A DNA stretch of 64,000 bases from assembly GCA_044892505.1 (NCBI GenBank), contig CM097883.1:424514001-424578000 (forward strand), read 5' to 3'. The notes below the pieces were generated by a model. That model had not been told where the DNA came from. It saw only the letters and a list, made by a program, of their open reading frames with translations, and did not search any database. Below, in pieces: positions 36,889-64,000 of the stretch; within the stretch, counting starts at the first letter, position 1; each line of letters begins with the position of its first letter. A program made the position numbers and the translations under genes. Source of the DNA: Schmidtea nova. Its lineage: Eukaryota.

Positions 36889-37450
36889 TGCTGGGATTAT
36901 GGGTGGGTTTTAAGTAATTCAAATAAATAGTTAATCATTAATTGAACGACTATTGATGAGTACGTATACTAGGGATTCCACGCCCATAACCATACATAAC
37001 ATGACTACTACACGCGTATGCCCTTGACTATTCCCTACTAGCCAAGTTGGTACTGCATACGGTGGTGGAAAAATGATGGGCAGGTGAGCTTTGTTGCCAA
37101 AACTACTCCCCATTTATCTTCCCTCGGGTCCTTGCTGCCGATAGAAGGTCTTACGCATTTACATTCTATGGATGTTCGCTTCCTACTGAATTTTATACTA
37201 CACATCCTTATGATCTATCACACGCTTTTCCCCAATTTCACTATCCTTAACTGATCTACAAGGTAATTAATCAGCTCCTACGTAGAAACGGTCGGTTTGA
37301 GAAAAATGCGGCTGCGATTTTTTACTTCTAGGATTTAGCTATTGTTATTTTATTTTATTTAGTGAATTCACACGATGAGAGAAAAATTTTACACAGTAAT
37401 ACTTTTATTAAAATAATAAAGACAGGTTGTTATTTTACATTGAGGTTTTC

Positions 37451-38035
37451 CTATTCAAACTCCAGGCTAATCTCCTGGATTAACTCTGCTTCGGTTAAGG
37501 AGTTCAGGTGGTGGATTTGTTCGTCCAGGCGCTTTGCAAATTCTCGGCGACGACGGCGCTGTCGCGATCCCATTCGATGTTTTCGAAGCTGTTGGTTTAT
37601 GACCGGTGCTGACGCTATTATTCTCGGGGGATCACTGAGAAAAATAGGCAAATCTTCCGTTGTAAGAGTGGGTGCCATGATGATATCATCTTCTGTCCCG
37701 CAAGCGACATCTTGGTGAGTGCATTGTATCCAGCGCTGAGCCGTGATCGGCCGGATTAGCGCTCGCAATTCGGAGTCGATGTAACTTCTTGTTACTGCGT
37801 TCAGGCAATTTCGGAGTTCCCGCTGGACGGCATCTAGTTCCAATTTGGTTGCGGCCAGTGCTTCCTGCATCCGCTCAAGTTTTTTCGACTGGTCCTTCAT
37901 TTGTCCGGGCGAGAACCACTTCGCCCTTAATTCATCATTGGCGACCGTGAGTCGCTTGATCTGTCGCTGCTGGTCCCTCAACTTCCTTTCTTGGATTTGT
38001 CCCATGATTTTCTTGGAATTTTCTGTAGTCGGCAT
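37451..38035 (-). CDS. LTR-encoded 194-aa protein, N-terminal coiled coil, unknown function
   Basis: Open 194 codons, identical translation in both LTRs, AG acceptor 5 nt before ATG, AATAAA cluster ~100 nt downstream. Confidence 0.65.
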   Translation of the reverse strand: MPTTENSKKIMGQIQERKLRDQQRQIKRLTVANDELRAKWFSPGQMKDQSKKLERMQEALAATKLELDAVQRELRNCLNAVTRSYIDSELRALIRPITAQRWIQCTHQDVACGTEDDIIMAPTLTTEDLPIFLSDPPRIIASAPVINQQLRKHRMGSRQRRRRREFAKRLDEQIHHLNSLTEAELIQEISLEFE

Positions 38036-38353
38036 GTTGTCTGAATATTATAACGATAAATTCGCTGGAGGACCTATCAACAATGTTATTTTATTTAGTC
38101 TACTCTTTATTATTATTAAACGAGATGTATACTAATGTTTTTAATTATCGAGTTCTTTACAAAAATATTTAACTATCTAACCATTGAAGACTCAAAAGAT
38201 TTATTGAACTAATTTTGTATTAATAAATGAATTTCCTAATGACTATAACAACTACAATACTAAATCTACATGACAACACTATTAACAAAATGAGACACTT
38301 CAGACTTCTTTAAAACATTTATTAAATTCAAAAATAGGTGGCCATTTATTCAA

Positions 38354-38830
38354 TTATCCATCTCCGGTCGTTTTTCCCCGATACGAAAATATCGATTTAA
38401 TTTGCAAATTTGTGTGGATTCCCGTGCTATTGGACGAGGCTTGCTGGAAGCGGATTCTCTCAGCTTCTCGAAGGGGTCGTATGGCTGTATTGAACTTGAA
38501 CCCCAATTCCTTGAAGGTAGAGGCTGGAATGAACCCCCAATAAATGACACATTTCGGGAATCCTCCTTTGTCCAACATCAGGATGAACCAGGCGGCGTGC
38601 CATGATTCGAATTCCTCGTCTGGAATGATTGGCCAACTAGCGCATCCCCGGTACCATACGTGGTGCCGTGGATGGTCCCATACTGTAAATGGACAGGCGG
38701 TTTCGAGCTCTCGGCGCCATGCCCACATCTTTTGATGGATTTGCTGTAAAATCTCGAAAGGAGCCGGCTTTAATGGGCTAACTCGGGCTCGTTCTTGTCG
38801 TTTTTTGATAGTGTATCTATGCTTAGTCAT
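38354..38830 (-). CDS. LTR-encoded 158-aa Trp/Cys/His-rich protein, unknown function
   Basis: Open 158 codons in a GC-richer island flanked by AT-rich spacers, AATAAA after stop, identical in both LTRs. Confidence 0.6.
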   Translation of the reverse strand: MTKHRYTIKKRQERARVSPLKPAPFEILQQIHQKMWAWRRELETACPFTVWDHPRHHVWYRGCASWPIIPDEEFESWHAAWFILMLDKGGFPKCVIYWGFIPASTFKELGFKFNTAIRPLREAERIRFQQASSNSTGIHTNLQIKSIFSYRGKTTGDG

Positions 38831-40376
38831 GATTCCAAAACGATGCTGAATTTTATAATAGTTACAATTTACATCAATAATTAATCATAGTAAATGTTAT
38901 CTCTCATCGTGATATCTTTATTATTTGCCTACCCCTTAGCTGAAATCAAGAGAAACTGTCGTTCGTTACGGTATACATTACTCTCGTATCTACTTAGCTT
39001 TATCTGTTTACGATCAATATTATAGACGGAAAAAAATGGTGATTTGTCTGCTTGGATTTTCAAAATATTGATACCTCAAAACGGAAGCTCTCTCCCGTCA
39101 TGTATCCCTAGCTTATTCGAAAAAACGCTCTTTTGTATTAAATGCGGTCGACCTAATTTTTCTAAGGTTTATTAGACGTTTATCTAGCCATTGTGCTCTG
39201 GTGAGGGTGAACAATTTGTGCCTCCTCACGGTTAAAAAAAATTCTTTCATATCTTTAAGCGTTATCAAAAAATTTTCGTCCCCTCTGTAGCTAAAATGAT
39301 CGGAAAATAATTCCCCGGATTTGTTGGGTGTCCCATGTGCAAGTCTCAACCACTACTAATAAAATTATGCTTTACTATTTATTACTTTACCGTGTGTGGA
39401 GCCCTCGAGCACCACGCCACGGACGGACACCTTGGGAACCTAAAGCTCCCAACGGCGCAAGATTAATATGATAGTTTAAATAGTTTAAATATAACATAAA
39501 TCAAAATGAGATAACTAATAAATTATAATATGATAATGACATACGAATACAACGATATCATAAACGTAAATATACCAAAAATACCTCAATTGAATTCTGA
39601 AAATTTATTGATCAAAATCGGTCTAAACGGTGATCGTCGTCGGGGCAATGTGCAATCTAATGCGAATTTTTAGTTAAAGTCTAAATTTCAGTCTAACAAA
39701 GTCTACTAAAGTCTCACTCTAGTCAAACGTCTAGTCTATCAAAGTCTGATTTTATGAAAAATCTGATCAGTATTTATACTGATCAGTCGTGTCTAGACTG
39801 ACCAATCAGGTTTGGCCAGTTTCATGGTGGTTTTTAATTATTGTTTTTGATTCTAATTAATTTTTATTTTTTAGATTGTATTCTTCCTTGGAGGTCCGGG
39901 TTTCAAAAACAATTATTCAATAACAAGTACTTTTATTTGGTTTTAATTATTATTATTTGTATTTTATTTGTTTTTAGATGTCTCCTGGGCCCGTTAATAT
40001 CTATAAATTCATTTATTTTTATTTATAGCTTGTACTTAGTTATTCTATATTTTTACTATATTATTCCTTTCTTTTAATAAATAAATATTCCCCTTTTTAC
40101 CTTATTTTTCTCTTTTTTGTTTTAATTAATCTACTTTTATTTCACTGTTCCCTCTATTTGGCTGGCCCAACATCACTCGGGGACCCCTAAAATTGCGTCC
40201 CGCAATTAATTATACATTTACACCTATATCATCATACATAAAAATTAAGCAGATAAATGTCAATTTACATATACACAAAGAATCACGTAAGGTGATAGAT
40301 TTTATACGTAAGCACAAAGTCATATTATTGTTAAATGTAAGTGGATCATACATAAAGTGAATGTAATATATCAGTT

Positions 40377-40949
40377 TTACACAAGCTCTTTGATTTCATG
40401 ATTGGTATTGGATTGGATTGGGGTTCTTTCGCTGATTGTTCGTAGTTCGTAGTGGCTTTGGATTCGGTTTAGGTGTTTTCTCATTCGCTTTTGGGTTCTG
40501 ATGTCTTGTATTGTTGTTCGATTCAGGATGACATGTTTTTGTTTTAAGATCTTCACTCGGTATGATGTTATGAGGATTGTGATCGCGATAATGGTCACGC
40601 TGAGTGCAAGGATTATTATAATTGCGATGATCCATTTTTCTTGATATTCTATCTCTGCTTGGGCTAAGCTTTTTATGGGTTCTCGACCTTCTTTTAGGGT
40701 TTTTCTGATTGTTTTCAATTTGATTCGATGTTCATATAGGACCTGTTGAAATTTTTCATCGTTTGGGTTGTCTGATGTTATCTGTTGAAGTTGGGTGATT
40801 TCTTGTGTTGCTTCGCTGATTAGTTTATCTAGTTCTTGATAGGTTTTCTCGGGTAGGGCTCGTAGCTCCTTCTCTGTGAGTTGAAGATCTTCTCTTTGTA
40901 GGGTGATTGTTATTAGGTATAGGAATATCGGTATTCTGAGCTTTTTCAT
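40377..40949 (-). CDS. 190-aa cargo membrane protein (signal-like N-terminus, coiled coil, TM)
   Basis: MKKLRIPIFLYLITITL; WIIAIIIILALSVTIIAITILIT hydrophobic span. Confidence 0.7.
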   Translation of the reverse strand: MKKLRIPIFLYLITITLQREDLQLTEKELRALPEKTYQELDKLISEATQEITQLQQITSDNPNDEKFQQVLYEHRIKLKTIRKTLKEGREPIKSLAQAEIEYQEKWIIAIIIILALSVTIIAITILITSYRVKILKQKHVILNRTTIQDIRTQKRMRKHLNRIQSHYELRTISERTPIQSNTNHEIKELV

Positions 40950-41031: not shown

Positions 41032-42093
41032 TTACACAATCGTCTCGTTTGGTTCGTAGAAACCTTCGTCCTGAGGCTCTACTTGGTTCGTGGGGAGTGG
41101 TATCCAAACAACCCTGCTCCTCCACATTTCGACTTCATCTCGATACATGTGAGATATCTGGATCTCCTCGTCTAGCAAATATTCTAGGTAATTTGCTTGT
41201 TCTGTTAATGTTTCTATTTGTTTCTCTAATTCGATTACTTTTGTCTTTTGTTCGTCTTCTTTTATCATTTTTGTTACGGCTGCCGTTATACTTGCTTCTT
41301 TGGGTATTACTGATACTGTTACTCGTTTCTGTTTCAATTCTTCGTTTTCTTTCATCAAATTCGTTAAATTTTCCTCGTAACTTTGTTTCTCTTCCTTTAA
41401 CCTTTCCCTGGTTCTTTTTAGCTCTATTTTCTTTTGAGTAATCACCCCTTGATAACCATTTATATCTCTCTTCATCTCTTCTTCTTTCTGATTCCATATT
41501 CCGGTGAGCATAGTTTTCAGTTGTTCTTGATTAGCTAGTTCTTCTCCCATTCTTTGAACTTGATAGGTTAGTCCTTTAATTTTCTTTGCTTGTTCCCGGA
41601 TAAATTGCTGTCTCTTTGTATTCCATCTTTTATTCAACACTTCTTGGTGTATTTTCTGTTCTAACTCGTCTTTTAATTCGTCGATCTCTTTATATAATTT
41701 CCAGTCATCGCTATAAGCTGTCCTTTCTATTATTTCTCTAGCTTTTTCGTAAGATTCTTTCGCTTCTTTCTTCCAATATCTTGCTTGTTCTGTAATCGAA
41801 TACATCTTGTGTTCAGCTTCCATCTGCTGTCTGTCTCTTTCCTCTCGTCGCTCTTTCATCATTCTCTGGTAATATTCCTTTTGTTGTTGTAGCATTTTGT
41901 ATACTTCTTCTATTTTTTCTCGACTTCTTTGACTTGATCTTTCCGCTTCTTTTAATAATTCGGCTTGTCTCTCTATCTCCTCTTGCTTTCCATAATATGC
42001 ATTGACCCATATTTCAATCTGTTCTAGATGATCGCTAATCGCTTCTGCTTGATGCATCGTAATTTCCTGTAAGCATACTTCGATATTTCCCAT
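41032..42093 (-). CDS. 353-aa cargo coiled-coil protein
   Basis: Long open frame, E/K/Q-rich heptads; strong polypyrimidine-AG acceptor immediately upstream of ATG. Confidence 0.75.
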   Translation of the reverse strand: MGNIEVCLQEITMHQAEAISDHLEQIEIWVNAYYGKQEEIERQAELLKEAERSSQRSREKIEEVYKMLQQQKEYYQRMMKERREERDRQQMEAEHKMYSITEQARYWKKEAKESYEKAREIIERTAYSDDWKLYKEIDELKDELEQKIHQEVLNKRWNTKRQQFIREQAKKIKGLTYQVQRMGEELANQEQLKTMLTGIWNQKEEEMKRDINGYQGVITQKKIELKRTRERLKEEKQSYEENLTNLMKENEELKQKRVTVSVIPKEASITAAVTKMIKEDEQKTKVIELEKQIETLTEQANYLEYLLDEEIQISHMYRDEVEMWRSRVVWIPLPTNQVEPQDEGFYEPNETIV

Positions 42094-42211: not shown

Positions 42212-43594
42212 TTACGTCAACCATCCTTTTCTATCCGCTTTCTCATTCCTTTCCATTTCTATGTATAGGGTGTCTGCATATAATCGTTCCCATAAGCTTT
42301 CTTTCGTTATAAACATCGGTTCTCCCGCTGCTAATCCACATTCTGTGGTTGGTTTCTCGCTCGTACTCGCATGTTTCTCTGTCTCAAAGAATTTTTCCAC
42401 TGGTTTTGTTACACTTCTGATTCTTATAATGACTCCTACTTTCAAGGGCCATTCTACTAGGTCGTCGTATTCTCCTTTACATAGCGAGAAAAATATTGAC
42501 ACATGTGTTCCTCGTCCTCTTCCGTCTCCATTTGGGTATAGCTTCAATCTCACTTTAGCTCCGTTTCTCCATAAATAAAATGGTGGGCTTATTACTGCTG
42601 TTTTCGTCATATTTCTGGCCTCTGTTAATTTGTTTCTAAAATCTGTCACTTTCCACACATATGGTGCGATTGGTAACTTTTCCTCGGTATCTTGGGTGAG
42701 TTTGTTGTACTGGATTTTCATTCCTTTAGCCAGTTCTTCGATAGCTTTTATCTTTTCCTCCATCTTTTCTCGTGTTAGTTCGAATTGTTCTCTGGTTTCC
42801 AACAGTAGGTTTACCATTATCTTGTGTGACTCTATTTCTCTTTCTAATTTTTTGATTGTTTGTTCGGTTTCTTTTGTTGCTTCGTTTGTCATTTCCGCAT
42901 GCTTTAGCAATGCTTCCTCCAGATGTTGTTTCATGGTTTTTTGCGTTCTTTTCTCCATACATCCCTGTTTGTTATAAGGACATTCCCTTGGTTTCTCCGT
43001 GCACACTTTCCAATGTTCTTGTAATTTTACTTCTACCGTTATCTCGCATTCGTTTGAACATATTCCTATATATTGTCTACATACTTTCTCCTCTTTTACA
43101 TTCAGGTGTTCTTCTTCGATCTTTCTCCTCGTTTCTCGAGTTCCACAATATTCGCATAGACTTTCCTCTTCTTTACATTCATCTTTGTGCTGCTCTTTAT
43201 TCTTTATAGTTATTTTTTGTTGGCATTTGTTACATTCAGTTCTCTTCTCTTCGCAGTTCTCCAGATGGTTCTCGAGATCGCGTATTTGTCCTTGCCATAT
43301 ACATGGTTGATTTATACATTCGGTTTTCGTGTTCATGATTTCTCTCTGAGTTGCTCTATCTGGTCCGGTTTCTTCGAATTTTATTTGTCCTTCTTTGCAT
43401 TCTGGACATTCTGGTGGTCTTTTCATACTTAACTCGTGTATGCATTTGGTACATACTCTGCATCCGCATAGGGTTTGTCTTGGTTTCAATATTATGTTTT
43501 TACAATTTACACAAGTGAGTCTCTGACTCCATTTCCTGTTCTCGGCTCTCAAAATTTCGATTATCCGCTCTTCGGCTTTTCCTTCTGTATTCAT
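42212..43594 (-). CDS. TRAF: Intronless TRAF-family protein (RING - TRAF zinc fingers - coiled coil - MATH)
   Basis: CVNC..PRQTLCGCRVCTKC...CPEC; CINQPCIWQG...HLENC; YVWKVTDF...ISPPFY...LKLYPNGDGRGRGTHVSIFF...GEYDDLVEWP. Confidence 0.92.
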   Translation of the reverse strand: MNTEGKAEERIIEILRAENRKWSQRLTCVNCKNIILKPRQTLCGCRVCTKCIHELSMKRPPECPECKEGQIKFEETGPDRATQREIMNTKTECINQPCIWQGQIRDLENHLENCEEKRTECNKCQQKITIKNKEQHKDECKEEESLCEYCGTRETRRKIEEEHLNVKEEKVCRQYIGICSNECEITVEVKLQEHWKVCTEKPRECPYNKQGCMEKRTQKTMKQHLEEALLKHAEMTNEATKETEQTIKKLEREIESHKIMVNLLLETREQFELTREKMEEKIKAIEELAKGMKIQYNKLTQDTEEKLPIAPYVWKVTDFRNKLTEARNMTKTAVISPPFYLWRNGAKVRLKLYPNGDGRGRGTHVSIFFSLCKGEYDDLVEWPLKVGVIIRIRSVTKPVEKFFETEKHASTSEKPTTECGLAAGEPMFITKESLWERLYADTLYIEMERNEKADRKGWLT

Positions 43595-43685: not shown

Positions 43686-44042
43686 CTACGGCTCGTTTGT
43701 TGAATCTGGTTCTGGGTCATTTTCTGATCTGTTTATTGCCCAATTTGTCCATCCATCCTCTGCTTCTTCTGTCTCTCCCATTGTTAAACGGTCTATCTCT
43801 ATTGCTTGTCTCTGATTTATGTCGCTCATCACTTGATTCTCTCTGGTAAGTTGCGTTATCAATCTCTGTTGCTCCTCGATTCTGTGGAGTTGTTCAAAAC
43901 TATTATTATAACTTTCGGATAACAAATTCTGTTTCTCAATTAACTGATTTTGTAGTGAGTTGATTGTTCGTATTAACATGTCACACTGGGCTTTCCATCG
44001 CATAGCCATAGTAGTTTCTGCTATTTCTTCCTGTTCGTTCAT
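43686..44042 (-). CDS. 118-aa cargo coiled-coil protein
   Basis: Open frame between polyprotein stop and TRAF; Q/E-rich heptads. Confidence 0.6.
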   Translation of the reverse strand: MNEQEEIAETTMAMRWKAQCDMLIRTINSLQNQLIEKQNLLSESYNNSFEQLHRIEEQQRLITQLTRENQVMSDINQRQAIEIDRLTMGETEEAEDGWTNWAINRSENDPEPDSTNEP

Positions 44043-44167: not shown

Positions 44168-47100
44168 CTATATCACCATCACTGTCTTTCCTTCGTATCG
44201 CTCTTCATCTTCTATTTGTCTCCAAAATTCTTTACCTTTCGTCCTCCTTTGGAATTCTTTCTGTACTTCTTCCGGTAATTCTATACTGTAGTTCATAATC
44301 TTTATATCTGGCCAATGTGTTATTGGTTTCTTGTTGAATACATCATATATCCATATTATTAATAATACTGTTATTACTGGAATAGTTGCTGCTAGTATTC
44401 CCAGACCAATTAGTTCTCTAACTTGTTTGTTTACGTCCATCTTCGTAATTTCACTCTGGTTAATCATTGGTCCGTATTGTCCCTTTAGTTTATTTAGTAG
44501 TTGTTCTCGTTCTTGTTGTTTTCTTTTAACTTCTTTAATTACTTCTTCCGGCGTCCATCTTGCGTAAGGGTCTATTACTACTTGTTCCGCGTCCATTTGT
44601 TTCGTTGTCTGACTTAATTCTTTAAATTCGAGTTTTCTCACTTTCCCTTTGGACGTTGAGTTTACCGGTGTGTAGTACGTTTCGCATCTTTCCTGCTGAT
44701 TTCCTAATATGTCCGTCTTTTCTACCGCACATATCTCGTATTCGCTATTGAATTTCAGATTTCTGATACTTATTTCCTCTTTTCCTTTCACGTTTCCACA
44801 GTCTCGTGGCTGTCTTTCCCTTTGTTTCTGAACTATTACCCAACATATTTCTAACGTTTTATTGTCTATTCTCCATAGTATAAGAGTTGCTGTAGTATTC
44901 TTTTCGGTTCTTATTTGTATTTCTTGGTTTTTCTGTTGTCCATTAGGTTTAAAGGTAGTGGTATACCTCGCTTTTCCTTTGTTCCGTTGTCTTCTACTTT
45001 TTCGCGTTGTCTTTCCAACTCTTGTTCTGGTGGGTGTTTTATATAATTTGCATTCCAATTCATTTACTGTTATTTTGTCGCTTTTCCTAATCAGGCATAT
45101 TTCGTACGTTTGATTGCTTTCTAATCCTTCTATTTTTATTGTGGTTGTTCCTCTGTTTGTTCGACATTGCGGCGGTGTATTCTGGTTTGTTTTCTTTTCC
45201 TGCTTCTTCCAGCATACGCCTTTGACGTCCGGTTCTATTCCGGTTAACTCTAACATTATAGTTGTTCTCCGTTTGGTGCGTTTATTTCTTCTTCCTCGTC
45301 GTATGAACTTTATTGTTTCCCCAGGTTGAAATGTTTTACAAATTGTCGTTCCTTTCTTGTGTCTTTCTTTTTCTAGTAAACATAGTTCATACGTCCTGTC
45401 TGCTTTTACTTCTGATATCTTGGTTACTTTATTTGTTTTCCTTTTCCGACTCGTCTTTATTTCGCTTACGCCAATTTCTTCGTTGCTTCTGGCCCAACAC
45501 TTTGGGTTGGTGTTTTGGGTGTCGTTCATCTCTGTTACTGCCATTGTGTCAATGTCTATCCCTTCTTCTAACCGTTTTAACATTGTTAATATGAGTGCTA
45601 AACATAGTAATTCTGTTTGGTAGGTCACTCTTTCGGTCTCGTTTGTGGTTACTCTTGCTTCGGGCCTGTCTATGGTAATTTGTATAGTTGGCGTTGTTCG
45701 TCTGTCTATTGTCTGAGGTTTCTTGTTTTTTGTTCCTTGTGTCTCTGTTCCTCTACACTTTCCTACGACATAGTCTCCTTTGGATGGCTGCTGTATTGTT
45801 ATGGTTACTTTGGGTGTTAGGTAACTTGCACATGCAATTGTCTTATGTGATCTCGGATCCTTTGGTTTCCGAACGGTGCACATTCTGTACCAAGTATCTA
45901 GCTCTAGGTCATCGATCTCTATGATTTCTTGTTCGTATTCTGAGATCTTGCAATCCATTGGACTATTTTGTCCCGATATTTTGTCCTTTTTTGACCAACA
46001 TACTCGTTCGATTCCTTTTGCGTTTCCAATTTGTATTGTCGCTCTTTCTTCACATATCATTCCTTGAGTTGGACTAATTAAGGTCATGATTACCGTTAGT
46101 AATAATAGTTCTGGTTTAAAGAATGGGTTTATTGTTTGTTTGTAGCCTGTTCTTTTTATTTCGTTTTTATTTTTATAGTTGTTGTTTCTTTGTTTCCCAA
46201 ATTCATTGTTCTTATCATTTTTCTCTGTGTCCCTTCCTTTCTCTTCACTGTCCTCTTTATCTGATAACTCATGATCCTCTGGATTTTCTCGAGTACTATC
46301 GTCGTCGTTTCCTGTATTGTCACCTCCCTTTTGGTCGTTGAAAATGTCGTCCTCGACATTAATGGCTTCTATCATTTTTTCATACGTTATGGTTGTGAGT
46401 ATACTTGCTTCGTATTCTTGTGTTTCTGCCTGCTTAGGTATTTCCTTATCGGTTAATTTACAATCTAGAATCTCTTTCTTGGCTTTTATCCAATTATTAA
46501 GGTACGTTTTCATTAGTTCTTTCCATTTGTCCGTACGTTCTGTTTCCTTTGGGTTGTTTGTGAATCGTAAATCTTTTCTTCTCATGAAGATATCTATTAT
46601 CTTTGGCCATTTGTTTATTATTAATGCACACTTTATATACAAATTTTGGCCTTGTTCCATGCACTCGTTGATCCTGAATGCTGGTTCATTGGTGTTTGGG
46701 TTCATCCAATTGAGTATTGCTTCAGTTAGTTCAGCGTTATGCATCATGGAATGTACGCTAGCTTTTTTAACTGTCCTTGTAAGGTATTCTATTTCCTCCT
46801 GATTTGTGATTGTTTTTATGAAATTTATCACCTCCCAATTGTGCGCTAACAACGCTACGTCTAGTATTGAGCTGTCTTTGTTAGTTCTTCCCATGAGTCC
46901 TGCACCTGCTTCGTACAGTTCCTGTAACACTCGGGTTTTTGTGTTCGCTCTTGCTGCGAATATCATGAGGGTATCTCCCTTTTTATCTTTCATGTTCATG
47001 TCACTTCCGCAATCTTGCATCAACCGTGCAATTTCGACTACCCTCCTATTTTTTCCTGCTCGTAAGGCTCTATGTATTGGCAATACTCCATTCTTTGTTA

Positions 47101-50100
47101 ATAAGAAAGTCACTGGCATTTCTCTTTTTATGATCATCATATCGTTTTCATTGTAAGTTCCTTCCGCATATGCGTGTACCTTTTCCACAATTGATCCGAG
47201 TATCTCCAGTGTATGTTTAGAATTTTCGAATTCTGGTAATAGTTCTTTTGCTTTGTCCTGTATCGCATCTAACCTTTCTTGATATGGTACCTCTGCGCTG
47301 AAAAGTGGTGTAACTTTCCTTTTGCTTTCTCTTTCCTTTTGACATAGGAATTGTTTGCATTTTTCGGGGTGGTTTAATATGTCTATTAGTTTGTCATACT
47401 CTTCCTCCACCGTTTTGTATTTATCTTGAAAATTGGATATATCTTTGTAAGTTATCGTCTTGGTTAGCGATTTTGCACACCATTCCCTAATTTTCCTGAA
47501 TAATGCTTCTTTTTCACTTTCGAATTTACACTCCTCTTTGTTTTTGGAAATTATGATATTTCTTCTGTCTAATAACGTTAACAGTGCTTTCTGGTCACAA
47601 ACGAATTTTAATAGGAATTGTAATAACGTGTTTTGCCCTTCACTGTATACCTCGTTTATATTTAACACCCATGTATCATTTTCGGATCTTTTCCATTTTA
47701 TTAGCTTGCGTATTGTTTTGCAGTTACCGATTTTTATTGCCTCCTTGATTATATCACCTTTGATCAGTTCGTCTATTTCCCAAGTGGCCTTCTCGATTAT
47801 TTGTTTGAGCATTATCTGATTTGAGCTCCATATTGCGTGATTCAAGACTGTTTTGTTTTCTCTATCGCGTTCCGTCCAGTTGAAATCGGCATTTATCAAA
47901 AGGTCTATTATTGCTTTATCCGATTTGTAGATGGCTGCTATCATTAATGGTGTTTCTTGTTCGCTATTCCCAAAACCAAGGTGTTGGTTTGTTTCCTTAG
48001 CGATTTTTAGAAATTCTTTTACTCTCTCTACTTCTCCCCATTTTATGGCGTTATGTAATGCTGGTTGTCCTCCTATGTCTTGTAGTGAAAGTATTTCTGG
48101 AATTTTCTCCAGTAGTTCTGAAATGACTGGTTTTGTTGGTAGTCCCCTTGCGTAATCACTAATTATCGACTGAATATCTCTTAATATATCGTCTCTGACA
48201 TGCCATTTTCCCATTATTTCTCTGGCTTTTAGTACCATTTCCTTGTTTCTTTTTTCTTGTTGATTGTTTTCTGCTTCGGTACTTTCATTGGTTGCTCTGA
48301 GCATATTCATTCTGGCTGTCTGGGATCTGGTTATTATTCGTTCTTCTGGCGCTGTGGTTATTGTTTTTGGTACTTTCTTACATCTGCATGTATTAACGTA
48401 TATTGGTCGTATCAATGGTCGATTAACAAGTTTTACCTTCACATTGTTTTCCTTTTTGTATATAACTTCGTAAGGGCCTTTTCCTGGTCGTTGTAGTTTT
48501 TTAACGGTTCCTGGTATTATTTCTGGGGTTTCTATCATTACCCAATCTCCGGGTTTAAGATCATTTGTTTTAACATTTTTCTTTTGATCGTGTAGGTCCT
48601 TGTAACTTTCTTGATAAAACTTTATGTTTAGTTCTGCTGTCTTCCATATCTCTTGCATTCGTTCTTTGAATTTGGTGACGTAATCATCTTCCTCCATATA
48701 TTGAGACAAGGGTGGTTGATATTCAAGATCTATTGGCATATTGCATTCCCTTCCATACATTAATTGAAATGGACTCAATTTTGTTGCTGCGTGTATCGAC
48801 ATTCGGTATGCCATTAGACATAGCTTTACGTATTCATCCCAATCTGTTTGGTGTTTGCTTACATAATTGGATAACATTCGAATCAATGTGCCGTTAAATC
48901 TTTCCGTTTGTCCATTGGTTTGCGGATGATATGGTGACGTTCGTAATTTAGCTATTCTGAAGTAATTTGTTACTTCATCTAGTATTTCGCTCATAAAATT
49001 TGTTCCTTGATCTGTTAGTATTTGTTTCGGGGTTCCGTATCGACAACATATTTCTTCTACTAAAATTCTTGCTACGGTCTTTGCTTTTTGATCCGGCATC
49101 GCAAATGCCTCAGGGAATTTAGTCAAATAATCCGTTATTACCAATATATATTGATTCCCGTTTAAACTTTCTGGCAATGGTCCTATTACATCCATCGCAA
49201 TGGTAGTCATTGGTTCCGCTGGTATTGGCATGGGTTTTAAGGGATTTTTCCATTTCTTCCCACTATCCTTTCTTGTGGCACATGTTAAACAGTTCTTTAT
49301 CCATTCCTTTACGTCTTCGTCCATTGTGGGCCAATAATATTTTTGTCTCATGCGATCTAATGTTTTCTTATCGGACATATGTCCTCCTAGCTTTCCGTCA
49401 TGGTATTGAGTTATTATCTCTTTTCGTCTATTACCTGGCAGACACATTAATCGTTTTTCTCCATTTTGTATTAATAACCATCCTTTTTCTATTGTGTATC
49501 GATGTTGGTATTTCCTCATGTGTTCTTTTAACTCCGCATTGTCTTTGAATACATCCATATTCCGTGAGCTTAGGAATTCTATGATGGGTCTTAGTTCTTT
49601 ATCCTCTTGCTGATCTTTCTTTAACTCGCTGAAATCCAAATCCTCTGCTATCACTATGCATATTCTTTGCACTTCTGGGTCTGTTAGTTCTGGAAACGTT
49701 AATCTTGACATGCAATCTGCGTTGGCATTCGCTTTCCCTGATTTGAATTTTATATCTGGTGAATATTCTTGTAATTGCATCGCCCATCTCATTAATCTGC
49801 TGGATGTTTCCTTATGTTGTCCTAGCCATACAAGTGGTTGATGATCCGTGGTTATGCATATAACGTGTCCCCATAATAGATATTTAAAGTGTTTTATTGC
49901 TAATATTATTGCCAATGCTTCTCTTTCCGTTACCGAATAATTCTTCTCGTGTTTCTTGAATGTTCTGCTATAATATCCGATTACCCGCTCTTTTCCCTCG
50001 TCATCATATTGTCCTAACACTGCTCCTGCTGCATATCCACTTGCGTCGGTTGCGAGTAAAAATGGCTTCTTGAAATCCGGGTGAACCAATATTGGTGCAG

Positions 50101-53100
50101 TTATTAACTTATCTCGTAATGTTTCGAAGGCTGTTTGTTGTTCGCTTCCCCATATGAACGATACGTCTTTCTTTACTAGCTCCTGGATTGGTTTTGCAAT
50201 TCCTGCGTAATCCTTTATGAATTTTCTATAGTAACCGCATAATCCGAGAAATTCTTGGATCTGCGTTATCGTCTTTGGTACTGGACATTCTTTTACTTTA
50301 TCAATGTTTCTGGGATCTGGTTCCTTTCCTTTTGCGGACACAATATGTCCTAAGAATGTCACTTTCTCCTTTGCCCAATCGCATTTCGATGGTTTGAGCT
50401 TGAGTTTCCATTGTCTCAATCTAACAAATACATCTCTGATATCTTGGATGTGTTGTTCAAATGTGCTTGAGTAGATCAGTAGGTCGTCAATGTAAACCAT
50501 GCATTGTTTTATGCCGTGGGTAACGAAATTCATACATCTTTGAAATGATGCTGGCGCATTGGTTAGTCCAAATGGCATTTTCCTAAACTGGTACAAGTCT
50601 CTTCCGATAGTGAAAGCAGTTTTCTCTTTGTCTTCCTCTTTCATTTTAATTTGCCAGTATCCGCTTTTCAAATCCAATGATGTAAAATATGCCGCTCCTT
50701 GTAATGTCAATAACATCTCGTTGATGTCCGGTAATGGGTATGTATCCCTTTTTGTAACTGCATTTAATCTCCGATAATCAATACAAAATCGTTGTGTTCC
50801 GTCTTTCTTTTTCACCATTACAACTGGGAACTGCCACGGTGAGCAGCTTGGTTCAATTACTTCTGCGTCTAGCATTTTCTGTACTTCTGCTTCTGCTACT
50901 GATTTTTGCGCTTCAGCTAACTTGTATGGTCTTAACGCAATAGGCGTTTCGTCTGTTAGTGGAATCGTATGTAGTGTGACGTCGCATGTCCCTAGATCTA
51001 AATCGGATGCTGCGAATATGTCTTTATATTCTATCAGTAATCTTTCTAGCTGTTTCTTTTGGTCCTCATTTAATAGTTGGCTATCAATGTTCCAAGTGGG
51101 TTCCTCCTCTTTTACTCCTTCTTTTATTGGTATTTCGATATCCATCATTGGAGTTAGTTTACCTAATCTTTCATTTTCATAAATTATTTTATCCTCTTCA
51201 TCGAAATTTACTACATTTATTGGGATTTCTCCGTTGTCATTCGCACTCACTAATCCCCTTGCCATTGGCAACGACTTTCTCTTTTCAAATCTTTTACTGG
51301 GTTCAAAGATCATGTCGCCTTCTATTGTAGGATCTATTTTTACGAAACATATTTTCTCTCTCCGTGCTGGTACGATTATTTGTTTCGAACTTGTTACTTT
51401 TGCTTCTATTGCGCATATCTGTCCTGTCCTATCCTTTAGTCTCATTGTTCCGAGATCAATAACTATTTCTTTAAATAATGCTGGCATCAGATCCGTGCCT
51501 ATAATGCATGGTACGCTCAGTGCTGGTATTACTGCTACGTACGTTTCGATTTCCGTGTTTTGATGTTTTATCTTTACCCACCATCTTCCGGCAACTTCTA
51601 CTACTTCTTTACTGCATGCTATTACGTGAACGTTGGTTCTCTCGATATCCCGTCTTTGTTCTTGTGGTATCCATTTTATATCTATTGCTGAGATATTTGC
51701 TCCTGTATCAATCATCGCTTCTATTTCCCTTCCGTTAATTTCGATTGTTGTAGTTAATACTGGACCGGTGTTTGATGACATTACTGCAATTGTATGTGAG
51801 TCTCCTTGCGGATCTACGCTTCTGCACCGTCTCGTTCTATAGTCTTCTGGTATCATAGGATATATGTTTGTCATCGGCATCATTTGCATTGTATTTTGTC
51901 TCATCCCTGGTGTTGGTTCTTGGTACATGGTTGGTGGGGGTGCGTAACATTTCCACATTTCCGCTGGATTCTTTTCGACATACTGTGGTACTTGATTTTT
52001 AAATACTTGACCTCCTTCGTTATCATCATCATCGTCGTCACTGGAATCGTCTTGGGTTCTGTACCCTTTCATTCTTTCCCATAGTCCTTTTCTCTCTTTC
52101 TTGAGTCGTTGTCTTGCTTGCTCGTTATTCATTATCTTTTTAAATTTTCGTCCCACCTCTTCATCGGTTCCTTTCATTTTTGCCAGTATTTTTAGGAGTC
52201 TCTTTATTCCGTGAATATCTTTTGAATGACCGTGTAATACCATTGTTTTAGCCAAAAATGGTAAGAATCCTACCACCAATTTCCAATTTACTTTCTTTTC
52301 TCTTTTATAGATGTCAAAACAGGCTAACATTTGAGTTATTATTACCCGTATTATTTGTATAATTAGTATAACACCAAGTATTCCTGCCATCATTTGTCCA
52401 AATATTAAAAATCTTCCCCACATCGCTTTCATCATGTTTTCCGTTGCCTTCTTAAAGTGGGCTGGTGACAATAATAATTCGTAATTTGGTCCACCTTGGT
52501 AATTTGTTCCTCCTGTTATTGTTACAATACTGGATAACACCGCTTCTCGTCTTGCCGGAAATAGTATGTTTTGTCTTGCTGCTTCTAAATCCTTTGCACT
52601 ATAGAATCCCATATTGCTTACATCTACGTCTTTAAATTTTCTTCCTTTTGATAGTTGCATCAATTCAAATTCCCTTGGTGCTGGTACCTCTGTTCTTGAC
52701 GGAAACATAACCCAATTCCCGTCTGGATTTTGGTATAGTGGTCCATATGCGTTGCTGCAATTGAAAGGGTTTGGTTCGAAACTTACTGGATTTATGATTC
52801 TTGTCACTGGTTGTACATATCTTACTTTCCCTTTATATTCGATTTCTAGTTCGTTAGTACACTGACCTGGTTGTAGTTTTGTCATTGTTGCCACCTTTGT
52901 GTTCGTCTTTTTACATATGTATACGTACATGACCTCTCCGACTACCCTTCCAAAATGACCTTCTCTTAATGGTAATAATGGCATTGCACTATCCGGGTTT
53001 GTGATTGCTACCGCTAGTTTTGTCTTTAATATTTCCCTATTTAATATGCAATCGTTGTTAATTAAATCGTAATACACTTTTTGTAGTGACGCTTGTCCTC

Positions 53101-56100
53101 TATGGAACAGAAAATCCATTTTATTGTTCATGTAAAGGTGTAATTTAACATCGTTCGTGTGCACTTTGCGTTTCGCACTAGGTACTTCTTGTTTTGATAC
53201 AAAAATGCCGGGGTAGTTGGTTTCCAACATAGCTACTCCGCATTTCAAGGCTGTTTTTCCTTTTACAAACCTCATTCCGATATCTGCATCTGAGGTAATT
53301 AGTACCGTTGGTGTATTTCTCATTTTAATTTGTTTTTCTTGTGTTCGGGTTTCAATCTTTTTCTCTCCCCGTACTGTGTCTTGAAGTATTTTTCCTCTTG
53401 CTGCCTCGTCTTCTTCTTCCTCTTGGAAGGTTTTCCCTTGTATCTCATCGAATTCTGCTTCCTTTAACAGTTGTAGTTGACATTCCTTTCCTCGTATCTG
53501 GTAGGTTAAGGTTGACATACCGGTTTGGCAAGTGTTTGACTCGATTTTGCACATTGGTAGGGTTTTCATTTCTCCCGTTGTTGGATCGAAGAATGCCTCG
53601 TACGTTTTTAATTCCACTGTATAAGTATCTATTACTACTAGGTTGGTTGCTGCTACTCCGAATATTGGATATGTTGCTCCTTGGCAATACCCTTCTCCTC
53701 CCGTAATAGCTCCTGCTACATAATATGTTTGTTGCAATATCACTCCCGTTTTTCCTCTTATCTTTACTCTATCTCTAGTCTCTACTTCTCCATGTTTAAA
53801 TAATTTTTCACAGTCTTCTCCTTGCAGCATTACCGATTCTCTTTCCGTTCCTGGCATCACGATTGCTGAATAATGGCGGTGTCCACAATAAAAAGCAAAT
53901 CTGGTTTTATAAACTTTGCATTCCCTGACCATTGTTCTTATCAGTTCAGCTTCCTGATATACGTGGTATAATTGTCTCTTTTTTAATGTTTTTAACTCCG
54001 TTGGGGTTGCGTCCTTACATTGTTCTGTCCCTCGTAGTGAATATTTCTCACCTAATGCCATTTGATCACAATCGAATACTTCAAATGCTGTTGCTCCGTC
54101 AGTACTAATCATCCATATTAACATCATCATAATGATAGAACTCAGGTTTAGTGATGATTTCCCGTTTCCTGTTCCCGACTTTTCCTTTTCCAATTCTCCC
54201 AATATCTCTTCGAATTTCTTTTTCAAATTTTTGGCTTGGTTTTTCTTTTGGTTCGTTTTTGTGAATGTTTCCCATCCTCCTTTACTGATGATGTACGGTT
54301 CTATTTCTTTCTCTATAATTTTGGCTGTATTCTTTATATGTCTTTCGAGTGCTGTAGGTTTCAGTCGACCTCTACTCAGTGTCAACAGATTGTAAATTGT
54401 GTATGCCATAGCTATTAAATATTTGTTATCCGTCTCTGCTCCTTCCGTTAACTTCTTTATCAACATCGTGGTTCCTTGCCAATCTAGGTGGTTTGACCTT
54501 GTCTTCTCTTTTATTAGTTCTGGTAGGATTGGTGCGATGGCGCTATGCAGTGATTTCGCCCTTTCGCTTATTTCGTTTATTCTCCACCATTTCTTTAATT
54601 CTGGATCGATTATTGCCAGTATTTCCATTAACATCTTTGATATCCATTCCTCGCCTTGGTATGTTTGTGTTGTTTCTTTTTCTTTCGTTTCGGCTATTTT
54701 ATTTAGTTTCTTTAAACACAAATCCCATTGATCCCGTCTTTTTTCCTCTCTTGATTTTATAACTACATTTGCTGGATCCATCTTGGGTCTACCTCTAGGT
54801 CGTTTATCCATTGTCGTGCCCGTTTCTACCAATCTTGTTTCTCGTCCAGTTTCTTCTGTGACGTCTCTTGGTTCATTGGCTCTTTCTTCTAACCATCTTT
54901 CCATTTCTTGTGTGAATTGTACATTTTCTACATTTGCCCTCCTTGCTTCCTCTTCTGCTATTTCATTTACTTCTTCGATGATTATTTCTTGTTCAACTTC
55001 ATCTTCGGTGTTGGTTACCGGTATTGCTGTTGGTAATTCTTGAATTCTTTCGAAAATATTATCATCCTTCTCTTTTGTTAGCTCTATTAACTCCTCTAAC
55101 ATATCATCGCTATCTGTAAAAATTTCGTCTACATCGTATGGTTCTGGTGGTGTTCTTTCTCTTGTCTCTCTTGGTGTTGTTTTAGCTTGTTCTGAGCTTG
55201 TTCCTGGAGTCATTACCGATTTCATTGGGCTCGGCGTACTCATACTTCCTTTTGGTTTCTTTTCCTCTTTCAATTTCAATGGTTGGCCTGCTATTGCTGC
55301 CACTGTCAATGTATTTGCGATATCTAATTGCGCTGGCGTTATTCCAATTTCCAAGCTGTTATCTAATGATCGTCCTTGGTGTTGTAAATGGAATGGTGGT
55401 TCATATCTCAATTTCTTTTTAATGTCTCGAACTTTCTCCGCTATCCCTACCCAAAACTCTTCCTTTTCTTGGTTCGGATATACTATTCTTAGGTGTACTT
55501 TCTGTGGCGATTCCTGCGAGAATTCTTGGTTTCTCCATTTTTTAATTACGTGATCCAATTGTTCTGGACACCACTCGTTAACTCTTTTGTATTCGGCGAT
55601 TGCTTTTGCTACTTTACGCAAGCATGTTATGTCTTCTCCATTAACTACGAAAAAATCTGCGAGACCTTTTACTACTTTTCTCTTGCCGTGCGCATTGGTT
55701 TTTAATATTTCGACAAATTCTTCCGTTTTTTGTTTCTCTCTTTCCAACCACATGGTTGCCGTTTCTGGTCCGTCTAAATCCGCTGGCATGGCTTTTCTTG
55801 TTACCATACAGACTCTTCCGGTTTCCGGTTTGTGATCGTCTTCTATGCCTATTTCATATTCTTCTTCGTACTCGCCTGCTTTTGGTTCCCAACATTTTCC
55901 TCGTTCGTTCCATTTCTTTTCTACGGGTGTTAGTAATCGTCTGTTGAGATTGAGTTCTTCTAATACATCTTCCCATTCTGGCCAAATCCGCCAATTTCGA
56001 TAAATGTCTACTATTTGTTGTAATTTATGCACAACTTCTTTTTGTCGTTCCCGTTCTCTTTTCTCATCCTTAGCAGTTTCTCTTGGTGTATCGTCCATTC

Positions 56101-59100
56101 TGATAACGTGGATGGTTTGATGATTATCCCATATACCAATTTTATATAGCCGTCTTTCATCGTGATCCCATAATACATGTTCGTTGTATTTCATGATTAT
56201 GTCATCTTCCCATTCTTCTTCTGGTTCTCTTTGTAATAGTGTCTCGTTGATGACATTTACTAATTCTTTTATGGTACAATCTGCTACCACTTCAATTTCT
56301 TTGGTATCCTCATTAGGTAACTCTACTGCAATTTTCAGATCTGTTATTTTCCCTTGTCTGAACATTGCTTTTCCCATTTTGGCAATTACTTTTCCGTATG
56401 AGATCTGTGACCATCTCGTGTGACTTGTGTCACGTATGCACTCGATACATCGTTTCAACTTTTCGTATTCGCTTCTCATTAACTCCTTTCTATGTTTTTT
56501 GATTTGTGGGATGATTTGTTCTATCATGGAATTTAGATTTCCTCGTAAGATTCGTCCTTTTTCGTATTCTAACCGTGGTTTTATCTTCCTCTCGAAACAC
56601 ATATTTGCTTCCTTTGCTACTTCTTGTAGGTTCTCTTCTCTCTTATCATCGCATATCGATAATGTTGTCACCTCTCCTGGCCATATGCCTGTTTCTATCA
56701 AATGCGTCCTTTTCTTCACTAGTCCATTCTGTGAATAGAGGAATTTGTTTTTATATGAACTCCCTAATCTATCTTCTACCCATTGATAAATATCTTCCGT
56801 GAGTGGAGTTTTGATCCAAATCCTTGGCAAACATGTTTTTATCTCTATTAGGATTATATATTCATGGAGTGGTTCTTTTAATAATTTTCCTACGTATTGG
56901 CTTAGTGTTTCTACTTCCCGGCCTGGTAACCACTCTTTATAGTTCATTTGTAATATCGCTCTCATGAATTTCCGATAGTGTTTCTTGTCGATGAACTCCT
57001 CATTATATATTACTTCTAGCGCGTTATCTAATAATTTCTGGATCTCGTCCTCTTTTACTTGAATAGTTTCTGGTGTCTTTACTACTTCTATCTTTTTGTC
57101 TTCAATTTCCGGTTCGTTTAGCATATCTCCGGCTAGACTACTGACGTCACTATCCTCTTCGTCATCTGAAAAATTCTTTGCCTGGCCTCTCAACATGTTA
57201 ATGTGTTTTATCTGGTTGATTTCACTTGGTGTATTTTCCGTTGGTCTTGTTTCACTTTTAATAGCTTTTTGTGTTGATTCACTCTTGTCGTCTACTACTT
57301 CGACCTTTCTCAATTTTCGTTCTAACTCGTCTATTTCTCCCAACCGTCTTCGTATCATTTTCCCTTTAAATATTCGACTGATTCGTGTTTCGTGACGCAC
57401 TGGCGATGGAATTCCTTCTGGTTCTATTTCCTTGATTACCATCACATTTCTTTTTGTCTCTACTACTCCCATGTTTTCCCATGTATCCGTTAGTTTCAAT
57501 TTTACTTCTGGTGCATCTTCTATTTTTAGGAATGCTTCTCTGGGCAGTTTCGTTACTCCTGGAGCCATTTCATTCACTTTGTTGAACAATGTTCCTACTT
57601 CTTCCTTTATGTTATATTGGAATCGAAACATATGACCGTTTGGCAGGATTACCATCATTCCCTTTTTCCAAATCATTCTTTTCTCTTCCTGGTTTGCCTC
57701 TGTTTCCACTTCCTTTTCTATTTCTGTTTCTTCGCTTCCTGGTACTATTTCTTTTCGATTTTCGTTATTGGTTGGATTCAGGTTTGTTGGATTTATTTCT
57801 GGCACAGTCTCTTTCTCGTGGGTATTTGCTTGATTGGTTGCTCTCATCATATTAATTCTTAGAGGTTGTCGTTCTCTTTCTTGCTGTTTTTGTTCCTCTT
57901 CTCTTTGTACTCTTGCCCATTCCTGAGCATGTCGTGCTTGACTTTCCCGATTCAATCGTTCGTTTTCGCTTTCTATTTTTCTCATCATATTGATTTGTTG
58001 TTGACCTGTTTGCGGATTTCCTCTGGTTGTATTGTTTATCAGCTCCGTCAATCTTTGAACCTCTTGCATTAAATGTATCTCTTTAGTGGTATTTTTATTT
58101 TGGTTATTATTATTACTATTTGGTTGGTTTCCGTATTCCGGTTGGTTTCCATTATTTGGCTGATTTCCATAATTCTGTCGGTTTCCACCAGTTGGTTGGT
58201 TTCCATAGTTTTGTCGGTTTCCGGTATTCTGCCAGTTTCCTCGTTGATTGCTTCTTTGTCCGCAATTTCTTGATAGGTGTCCAGGTCGTCCACAATTAAA
58301 ACAGGTTATTGTGTAACATCTGCTCTCTGAATGCCCTTTTACTCCACATTTTCCACAATTCAAGTTCTGATAACATTCTTGTTGCCAATGTCCCAATTTC
58401 CCACATGTTTTGCATTGTTTCGTTGGTCCTTGGGGGTTGTAATTGTTTTGATTTCCGTAATTTGATACTTTATTCCCTTCATTCCTTCGTTGCGGTGGTG
58501 GTCGGTTTAATTGTTGTGAATTTGGAATGTGGTTATTCAGGTTCACTTCTTGTTCGTTTTGTGCTGTATCCATAGCTAAATAGATTCTACCATCATTTCC
58601 TATCATGTGTAGTTCAAATCTATTAGCTGTTTCTAATGCTTGGTCGATGGTTTTACAACCTTGACATCCAACTTGCGCTCTTATGTCGGGTCTTCTTAAT
58701 CCTCCCACAAAGATAGCTGCCATTAATTCCTCATTTATTGGACTGTCTTGATTGAAAATCAACTTTGCTAACTTTTTCAATTCGCTTGCATATACCGCAT
58801 TCGATTCATTTATCTTTTGTTTCCTCATTGAGAATTCCGTAAATGCCTCATTCAATACTTTATTTATTCCGAAGGTTTGTTGGAAAAAGTCCTTTATCGC
58901 TGACCAACTTGTAGGTGGATTAATTCCATTTTTTGCTTCCAAATATAGATCTAATGCGCTATCTTTTAAATATAGCTGAATTCTGCTTACAGTTGTTTCT
59001 GGTTTCCACTTGCATACTTCCACGAATATGCCAAATTCCTTTAAGAAAGTTTCTAATTTACTCGCATCTCCATTAAACGGTTCTCCGGAAAATTTGTCTT

Positions 59101-61218: not shown

Positions 61219-61680
61219 TTATAAATAAACTACAATTCTATCAGCTACAGAGAAATTGCACATGGGGCACTTATCACACTTATTCGCACAGTTTTTACAA
61301 AATCGAAAATGTCCGCATGGTAGAAACATTATTTGGATTTCACTGTCTTCGCATATGTAACATCGTTTATATTGTTTTGTTGCCTCGACCCCTTGCGACA
61401 TCCATCGGTTATAAGTTAGGTTTAACTGCTGTTCTATATGTCGGCATCTGATATTCAACTCGGCATCCTCTAATCGTGCTTTGTACCATTTATATCGCGT
61501 ATTTATATCGAGTTTATTTACTTTCTCTATGATTTTTATTAACTCAGTTGTTTCCTCCGTTTGTGTCGTAGGTTCCTCATATTCGGATGCTCTTATTCGG
61601 GTTATTTTTTCGCAGACTGTCTCAAATGTATCGTTCTCGGTGTTGAAAAATTCCTCGATTTCTTTCAGTTTTTCCTCCAT
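61219..61680 (-). CDS. 153-aa protein with C-terminal IAP-type RING, no BIR domain
   Basis: CYICEDSEIQIMFLPCGHFRFCKNCANKCDKCPMCNFSVADRIVVYL-stop. Confidence 0.85.
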   Translation of the reverse strand: MEEKLKEIEEFFNTENDTFETVCEKITRIRASEYEEPTTQTEETTELIKIIEKVNKLDINTRYKWYKARLEDAELNIRCRHIEQQLNLTYNRWMSQGVEATKQYKRCYICEDSEIQIMFLPCGHFRFCKNCANKCDKCPMCNFSVADRIVVYL

Positions 61681-61933
61681 TTCCTAGATAATTTATTTAA
61701 TTACTGTGTTAATATTATTCGAAAAGTAGTACTGTGTTTCGTTTCTGACAGTTTTATAGCCTCCCCCCGTGTTTCGGTAAATTGTCGTCCCGACCTGTTA
61801 TTTATGAATGCATTTGTTCAATTTATCTACTAATTTGTTTTAATTTGTTTTAATACTATTTCTACTCACAAAATTCTGACTTTAAATTTCTCTGTTGTCA
61901 TTGGGTTCACCTTTTCCGCATAAAACAAAGTTG

Positions 61934-61951
61934 ATCCCGGCTGAGCCCCCA
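61934..61951 (-). promoter_or_regulatory. Primer-binding site, tRNA-Pro type
   Basis: TGGGGGCTCAGCCGGGAT, 16/18 to the vertebrate tRNA-Pro PBS TGGGGGCTCGTCCGGGAT; 6 nt inside the LTR end. Confidence 0.85.
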
Positions 61952-62519
61952 AATTTATGCTGGGATTATGGGTGGGTTTTAAGTAATTCAAATAAATAGT
62001 TAATCATTAATTGAACGACTATTGATGAGTACGTATACTAGGGATTCCACGCCCATAACCATACATAACATGACTACTACACGCGTATGCCCTTGACTAT
62101 TCCCTACTAGCCAAGTTGGTACTGCATACGGTGGTGGAAAAATGATGGGCAGGTGAGCTTTGTTGCCAAAACTACTCCCCATTTATCTTCCCTCGGGTCC
62201 TTGCTGCCGATAGAAGGTCTTACGCATTTACATTCTATGGATGTTCGCTTCCTACTGAATTTTATACTACACATCCTTATGATCTATCACACGCTTTTCC
62301 CCAATTTCACTATCCTTAACTGATCTACAAGGTAATTAATCAGCTCCTACGTAGAAACGGTCGGTTTGAGAAAAATGCGGCTGCGATTTTTTACTTCTAG
62401 GATTTAGCTATTGTTATTTTATTTTATTTAGTGAATTCACACGATGAGAGAAAAATTTTACACAGTAATACTTTTATTAAAATAATAAAGACAGGTTGTT
62501 ATTTTACATTGAGGTTTTC

Positions 62520-63104: not shown

Positions 63105-63422
63105 GTTGTCTGAATATTATAACGATAAATTCGCTGGAGGACCTATCAACAATGTTATTTTATTTAGTCTACTCTTTATTATTATTAAACGAGATGTATA
63201 CTAATGTTTTTAATTATCGAGTTCTTTACAAAAATATTTAACTATCTAACCATTGAAGACTCAAAAGATTTATTGAACTAATTTTGTATTAATAAATGAA
63301 TTTCCTAATGACTATAACAACTACAATACTAAATCTACATGACAACACTATTAACAAAATGAGACACTTCAGACTTCTTTAAAACATTTATTAAATTCAA
63401 AAATAGGTGGCCATTTATTCAA

Positions 63423-63899: not shown

Positions 63900-64000
63900 G
63901 ATTCCAAAACGATGCTGAATTTTATAATAGTTACAATTTACATCAATAATTAATCATAGTAAATGTTATCTCTCATCGTGATATCTTTATTATTTGCCTA

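Follow-up and report, generated by a model that had tools for sequence, protein, structure and literature searches.

Terminal repeats and their open reading frames

The 64,000-nucleotide window analysed here, from Schmidtea nova (GenBank assembly GCA_044892505.1, contig CM097883.1, positions 424,514,001 to 424,578,000), carries on its minus strand a young copy of a giant, Burro-like Ty3/gypsy retrotransposon (~28.4 kb), in which the long terminal repeats (LTRs) each contain two open reading frames (ORFs). Self-comparison of the window revealed a direct repeat, with 36889-38931 being equal to 61958-64000 over 2043 bp (0 mismatches) and the sequence left of the two copies being unrelated. This bears out the initial annotation, which had claimed a duplication of at least 2043 bp with ORFs of 194 aa and 158 aa. 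Both of these are ATG ORFs on the minus strand, the 194-aa one at 37451..38035 (second copy at 62520-63104) and the 158-aa one at 38354..38830 (second copy at 63423-63899), and since both occur in both copies of the repeat, they lie inside it wherever the LTR starts. The 3' LTR (36889..40172, minus strand) is probably 3284 bp long, comprising the proven repeat at 36889-38931 and a predicted part at 38932-40172, while the 5' LTR (61958..64000, minus strand) is cut by the window end and has its predicted start at window position 65241 (copy offset 25069).

Judged by their sequence, the two LTR ORFs are very probably real genes. With each of the three block sizes used, 0 of 3000 LTR shuffles contained two ATG ORFs of 158 aa or longer, and an ATG ORF of 194 aa arose in at most 0.13%. 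The in-frame amino-acid composition gave z values of 4.4 (194 aa) and 3.1 (158 aa), the best of six frames in each case, with the five internal accessory ORFs ranging from 4.0 to 7.8. Moreover, of the 60 indels relative to other copies, 12 are listed, and not one of these falls inside either LTR ORF, while eight are located in the LTR outside them. The LTR-borne accessory genes of the initial annotation are thus supported by the ORFs inside the terminal repeat, the coding statistics and the splice-acceptor-like starts described below. A 78-codon stop-free frame further in (39113..39349, minus strand) did not hold up as a gene, as it lacks an ATG, is equalled in length in 39% of shuffles, has a z of 0.85 and includes two of the 12 listed indels, and we ascribe it to chance.

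Splice acceptors and the accessory cassette

Four other accessory ORFs are found on the minus strand between the 3' LTR and the polyprotein. These are of 118 aa (43686..44042), 460 aa (42212..43594; TRAF-like, with zf-TRAF and a MATH domain at E 2e-21), 353 aa (41032..42093; coiled-coil-like) and 190 aa (40377..40949; helical, with one hydrophobic segment), and a 153-aa leader ORF with a C-terminal RING finger (E 9e-12) lies at 61219..61680 (minus strand). In six of the seven accessory ORFs, a YAG ends 1-5 nt before the ATG, as compared with 9.7% of 587 flank ATGs (P 5e-6) and 85 of 541 ATGs in the element (P 9e-5). This pattern was noticed before its statistical test, so a relative found by an envelope query (L001, 44% identity in pol) serves as the independent check; here, YAG directly precedes both of the two accessory ATGs, versus 8 of 271 among all L001 ATGs. 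The two LTR ORFs also have TATAAWATTCAG in common at their starts, a motif with three copies per LTR against 0.1 expected per window. One copy (38041..38052, minus strand) has its acceptor-like AG ending 5 nt before the 194-aa ATG, and another (38846..38857, minus strand) has its AG ending 15 nt before the 158-aa ATG. A role for TATAAWATTCAG as TATA box plus initiator of each ORF is disfavoured, given that there is no spacing and just 5-15 nt to the ATG. Each LTR ORF has an AATAAA after its end, at a distance of 3 nt in one case and 41 nt in the other.

From this arrangement, it appears likely that a 3' accessory cassette of six genes ends with the two LTR genes, and that reverse transcription would copy these two units into both LTRs. 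One long transcript would give rise to spliced and separately polyadenylated mRNAs, each unit being reached via splicing to the AG acceptor just before its ATG and closed by a poly(A) signal beyond the stop codon. The donor would most likely act in cis from the leader, such as that at 61869, where there is a candidate major splice donor GTGAGT (61863..61869, minus strand) 89 nt after the 5' LTR, with a second donor-like site at 60941. Donor-like sites in the LTR itself are located at 39717, 39544, 39229 and 37154.

As for their place within the LTR, both ORFs would fairly probably belong to U3 and be transcribed from the 3' LTR end of the RNA, which by analogy with precedent seems about twice as probable as a location in R. 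The third TATAAWATTCAG copy (37186..37197, minus strand), in the highly multi-copy LTR end, would then be the candidate TATA box. Less likely, though possible, is that the ORFs lie in an R of ~2.4 kb, with transcription starting at ~39750, downstream of a palindrome-flanked TATA box, and stopping at ~37340, such that each LTR, even a solo one, would be a self-contained two-gene unit with the donor at 39717. Fitting this are the donor-like site itself and a TATAAATA within a CTGATCAG palindrome (39763..39786, minus strand), whose candidate TATA box at 39778 sits in a block of high depth in other copies (relative depth 4.3 at GC 0.29, the depths being those of contigs from four runs of one study with at most three samples, placed on the window at 85% likeness, and not copy numbers). 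Likewise, the last AATAAA signals of the LTR (37349..37409, minus strand) start at 37409, 37359 and 37354, and downstream of 37354 there is neither AATAAA nor ATTAAA, hence none after the TATA-like site at 37197, a point that tells against U3. On the other hand, this TATA-like motif and the donor at 37154 fall within the part of the LTR that is shared most widely (26-33x internal depth), AATAAA is frequent in AT-rich DNA, and R regions of LTR elements are usually far shorter than 2.4 kb, well below the length that would be called for here.

A rather doubtful alternative to cis-splicing is operon-like expression, in which host spliced-leader (SL) trans-splicing would cut the cassette and LTR genes into single mRNAs at the same AG acceptors. 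The cassette spacers, which are AT-rich and 82-125 nt long, have a 3'-end-like motif behind the stop codon and a splice acceptor next to the ATG; TGTA[ACT]ATA is found in four of the five and in three of three in L001. The spacing of flatworm operons peaks near 100 nt in the available text of PMC8629364, and SL trans-splicing is reported for Schmidtea mediterranea in the part of PMC12582326 at hand. Conversely, there are good cis donors upstream (61869 and 60941), and the spacer between the two LTR ORFs measures 318 nt, with one of 334 nt in L001. Because both routes use the same acceptors, the choice between them cannot be made from sequence, and we rank cis-splicing from the leader as first choice and SL trans-splicing as its rival. 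The farthest-reaching form of the latter is a shade more doubtful still, namely that an env-bearing giant retroelement runs its accessory genes as a host-style, SL-resolved operon with the last two moved into the LTR, so that each LTR, solo ones included, would be a dispersed two-gene unit for proteins without a found relative.

Extent of the LTR and standing of the two genes

The initial annotation paired a TGTTGGG start with a CCCAGCA end, and of this the presence of both motifs stands. CCCAGCA forms the minus-strand end of both repeat copies, TGTTGGG occurs at 40172-40166, and 40172 is the best inverted match (6/7) to the LTR end among the 69 TG positions in 38932-40376; the 7-mer by itself, however, is common, with 8 occurrences in the window versus 5.3 expected. 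Nonetheless, an LTR that starts at 40172, with a length of 3284 bp and a whole element of 28,353 bp, is quite probable. A conserved block (40152..40208, minus strand), kept in diverged family members, spans this position with 36 nt on the internal side and may combine the att end with a non-canonical region for plus-strand priming. The bin containing 40172 has a relative depth of 3.7, as against 0.9 in the bin after it.

It is improbable, to about the same degree as operon-like expression, that the true LTR length is below or above 3284 bp, or that the identity of the copies reflects assembly collapse. The window end truncates the 5' copy, and a start at 40204, one of four TG positions with a 5/7 match, would also lie within the conserved block; moreover, collapse would account for 0 mismatches across 2043 bp, and the window has seven N runs, though all are outside the element. 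Position 40172, in turn, is the best of the 69 candidates and leaves the 36 conserved nucleotides internally, where the priming site is expected, and both ORFs stay within the repeat whichever start holds. Among the 24 loose contig ends listed (of 1355), none is at 40172, and as there is also none at the proven end 36889, they are uninformative on this point. Diverged single contigs lie near depth 10, so flank depth could not serve as a single-copy yardstick, and two joints suggestive of ORF-less LTR forms (37156-40006 and 37156-39852) were not relied on because of their short sides and low depth.

Other features of the LTR were also seen in these comparisons. The LTR end at 36882-37263, in view of its 26-33x depth, is common to a far larger set of related LTRs. 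Some other copies skip a ~290-nt segment (39452-39745), which also shows low depth and is therefore specific to this subfamily, and a GC-rich hairpin pair (39371..39490, minus strand; minimum free energy z -4.3 relative to 25 shuffles) has high depth in other copies.

Several observations weigh against the picture of two LTR genes in a spliced cassette. At the LTR boundary, the tract at 40173 is not a canonical polypurine tract, just as the initial annotation had it, and depth lends weak support to the 1.2-kb LTR extension, with a median of 1.7 in the six bins of 38983-40128, compared with 1.0 in ten internal bins (p 0.06) and 1.3 in AT-rich bins within the proven repeat. Three of the nine listed substitutions in the two LTR ORFs are synonymous, as against six of nine in the 353-aa ORF, in a sample of 40 from 595 that consists mostly of changes private to this copy. 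Since depth over the LTR ORFs tracks GC (rho 0.76), we do not take the higher contig depth there as a sign of selection. The 158-aa ORF is the exception among the seven in its acceptor, with the YAG 15 nt away, and 23% of control ATGs do equally well. GC at third codon positions (GC3) is 0.51-0.54 in the LTR ORFs versus 0.33-0.39 in the cassette ORFs, and the A-bias is weaker, which hints at a separate origin; together with TGTA[ACT]ATA, which is missing from the LTR, this makes an origin apart from the cassette possible. Sequence searches, including phmmer against 1.84 billion representatives, gave no homologue of the 158-aa ORF, and none was found for the 194-aa ORF (best score 0.89, below the useful level, with two matches at E >0.2 elsewhere), of which the protein also matched none of six export-signal patterns.

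Nevertheless, it is very unlikely that the ORFs are captured passenger genes, once coding but now drifting and kept because the LTR is copied whole: their distinct base composition, the six of nine listed substitutions that change the residue, the lack of detectable relatives and their absence from the sequenced part of L001 would fit, yet both frames are intact, share the 12-nt acceptor-like motif and the poly(A) signals, and have no listed indel against eight in the LTR outside. Overall, we lean slightly towards the combined reading of a Burro-like LTR with two genes, a spliced cassette and U3 placement.

Regarding the proteins themselves, Pfam returned nothing significant for either ORF, and a 141-aa ORF of L001 was rejected as a homologue of the 194-aa ORF (E 1.6). 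The single-sequence models are weak, with pLDDT values of 46.7 (158 aa) and 63.2 (194 aa). For the Trp-, His- and Cys-rich 158-aa protein, the model might indicate an alpha/beta fold, at low confidence, and fold searches with this model alone (best Z 4.9, best E 0.16) gave no evidence on the fold. The 194-aa protein is predicted to have long N-terminal helices, a disordered middle and C-terminal helices, and includes an Arg-rich patch with eight K/R in 12 residues (aa 158-169). The label "regulatory" that the initial annotation put on the LTR genes would derive from this patch alone. Tentatively, this helical, Arg-rich protein could be a nuclear RNA- or DNA-binding regulator of the element's own RNA, with a job like that of Rev or CERV, and, equally tentatively, the 158-aa protein could target the host cell, as would the TRAF, RING, ankyrin and Bcl-2-like cargo. 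According to the text available from PMC10309623, CERV of Cer1 in Caenorhabditis elegans is a Ty3/gypsy accessory protein made from a spliced mRNA that exports unspliced genomic RNA; by analogy, its likeness to the 194-aa protein would be in the possible job only.

Element architecture and relationship to Burro

The polyprotein (44168..59125, minus strand) has 4985 aa and includes gag, a CCHC knuckle, a weak Bcl-2-like segment, a fusion glycoprotein, protease, reverse transcriptase (RT), RNase H, integrase and ankyrin. Protease (aa 2459), RT (2771), RNase H (2992) and integrase (3230) follow gag in the order typical of Ty3/gypsy elements, and between gag and protease is a Monjiviricetes-type fusion glycoprotein (PF24664, E 3e-68, aa 1933-2274). 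The Bcl-2-like segment before this envelope reached E 0.13 only, and SUMO-like, dUTPase-like and BIR motifs were not found in nine polyprotein segments; in the Burro review, such motifs were sought with HHpred. In further agreement with Ty3/gypsy elements, the direct terminal repeats end in CA, and a primer-binding-site-like 18-mer (61934..61951, minus strand) lies 6 nt after the 5' LTR end. This 18-mer may resemble a tRNA-Pro primer site; the 64-kb window contains no tRNA gene. The polyprotein frame is open for 82 acidic codons upstream of the ATG (59126-59371, minus strand), and the true start or a spliced exon may sit upstream of the annotated one. At the C-terminus (44171-45928, minus strand), hydrophobic segments and repeated Cys-containing units are reminiscent of extracellular proteins, with no Pfam match.

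A homologue search restricted to proteins of 2741-8724 aa gave 20 matches, nine of which share the envelope-before-protease layout. In an RT-RNase H tree of the window and 19 matches (one short match was left out), the element and these nine relatives group together with support of 98/98. No named Burro sequence is among the 20 matches, and membership of Burro therefore rests on architecture, namely the single ORF of ~5000 aa with a mononegavirus-like fusion protein between gag and protease, and the TRAF/MATH, RING and ankyrin cargo, all of which are present. The envelope query in viral contigs retrieved no relatives. In L001 (56-12666), the polyprotein has several protease-like domains, and the accessory genes are an RNase T-family exonuclease and the 141-aa coiled-coil-like ORF, from which it follows that cargo varies across the clade.

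Genes overlapping the LTR are known from complex retroviruses, as MMTV sag, lentiviral nef and foamy bel. The resemblance suggested by the initial annotation is retained in so far as complete ORFs lie inside the terminal repeat, in the manner of sag, nef and bel, but by its polyprotein architecture the element is a Burro-like Ty3/gypsy retrotransposon and not a retrovirus. Accessory genes of complex retroviruses are in or over U3 and are expressed via splicing or internal transcription, while U3 placement here would be by inference; these viruses also differ in lineage and envelope type, and have no sequence similarity that we could find, and in the present element two complete ORFs lie wholly within the repeat.

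Burro (GYPSM1) of planarians has an internal region of up to 25 kb and a total of over 30 kb, with env in frame between gag and pol and with TRAF, ankyrin, RING and Bcl-2-like cargo (PMC6431247). The present element is alike in its ~30 kb, its ~5000-aa polyprotein with env between gag and protease, its CCHC gag, its ankyrin, TRAF and RING parts and, weakly, its Bcl-2-like segment, and in having multi-kb LTRs, as implied by the internal and total lengths of Burro (PMC6431247). In its giant size, envelope position, cargo and multi-kb LTRs, the element repeats what is already known for Burro, and an LTR of several kb is expected because the element belongs to this group. The element differs in the place of TRAF, which here forms an ORF of its own downstream of the polyprotein, whereas it is inside the polyprotein in S. 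mediterranea and upstream in D. tigrina (PMC6431247). Moreover, neither LTR-borne ORFs nor a splice-acceptor cassette is mentioned in section 7 of PMC6431247, with Burro being compared by description only. Plant Ty3/gypsy elements of the Ogre type similarly have long LTRs (1.9-6.5 kb) and additional ORFs without a known function, but these ORFs are internal and no env-in-polyprotein architecture is described (PMC6431247).

Elsewhere in the element, the leader has three tandem arrays (60084-60743; units of ~43-55, 41 and 30/61 nt), and Burro is also marked with tandem repeats (PMC6431247). A 27-nt stretch is 85% alike in opposite orientation between the LTR spacer (38070-38096, plus strand) and the sequence after the RING ORF (61144-61170, minus strand; E 0.05), and Rfam gave no match in 36000-64000. 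The TRAF gene is complete (42212-43594), and part of the planarian TRAF expansion, which is reported in the available portion of PMC6109357, might be retrotransposon cargo.

Outside it, the element interrupts broken ORFs at 35843-36888 (plus strand), where contig depth suggests a multi-copy family. By their motifs, these ORFs resemble a hAT-type transposase remnant, though Pfam gave no support. A second RING-finger ORF (23475-23984, minus strand) runs across an N run, has 39% identity over 46 aa to the leader RING, and adjoins a 30-nt tandem array (21422-23012). On the host side, direct repeats spaced by ~500 nt at 10446-11454 and 12805-13116, with an inverted copy ~2 kb away, are possibly a DNA transposon.

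What is new here is the YAG acceptor pattern across the accessory ORFs and the TATAAWATTCAG shared by the two LTR ORFs. We found no report of ORFs inside Burro LTRs, nor of SL-spliced retrotransposon cassettes, in a literature search that left out Repbase entries, supplements and Grohme et al. 2018, any of which could show them. Burro-like elements are abundant in planarian genomes and expressed upon loss of PIWI silencing, according to the accessible text of PMC8532177, and for how they express their cargo, of which we found no description, this copy offers exact candidate splice sites. Complex retroviruses provide the best-known cases of whole ORFs inside an LTR. Should the two genes prove real, solo LTRs would scatter protein-coding units over the genome, and if SL trans-splicing is used, a retroelement would have adopted the operon machinery of its host.

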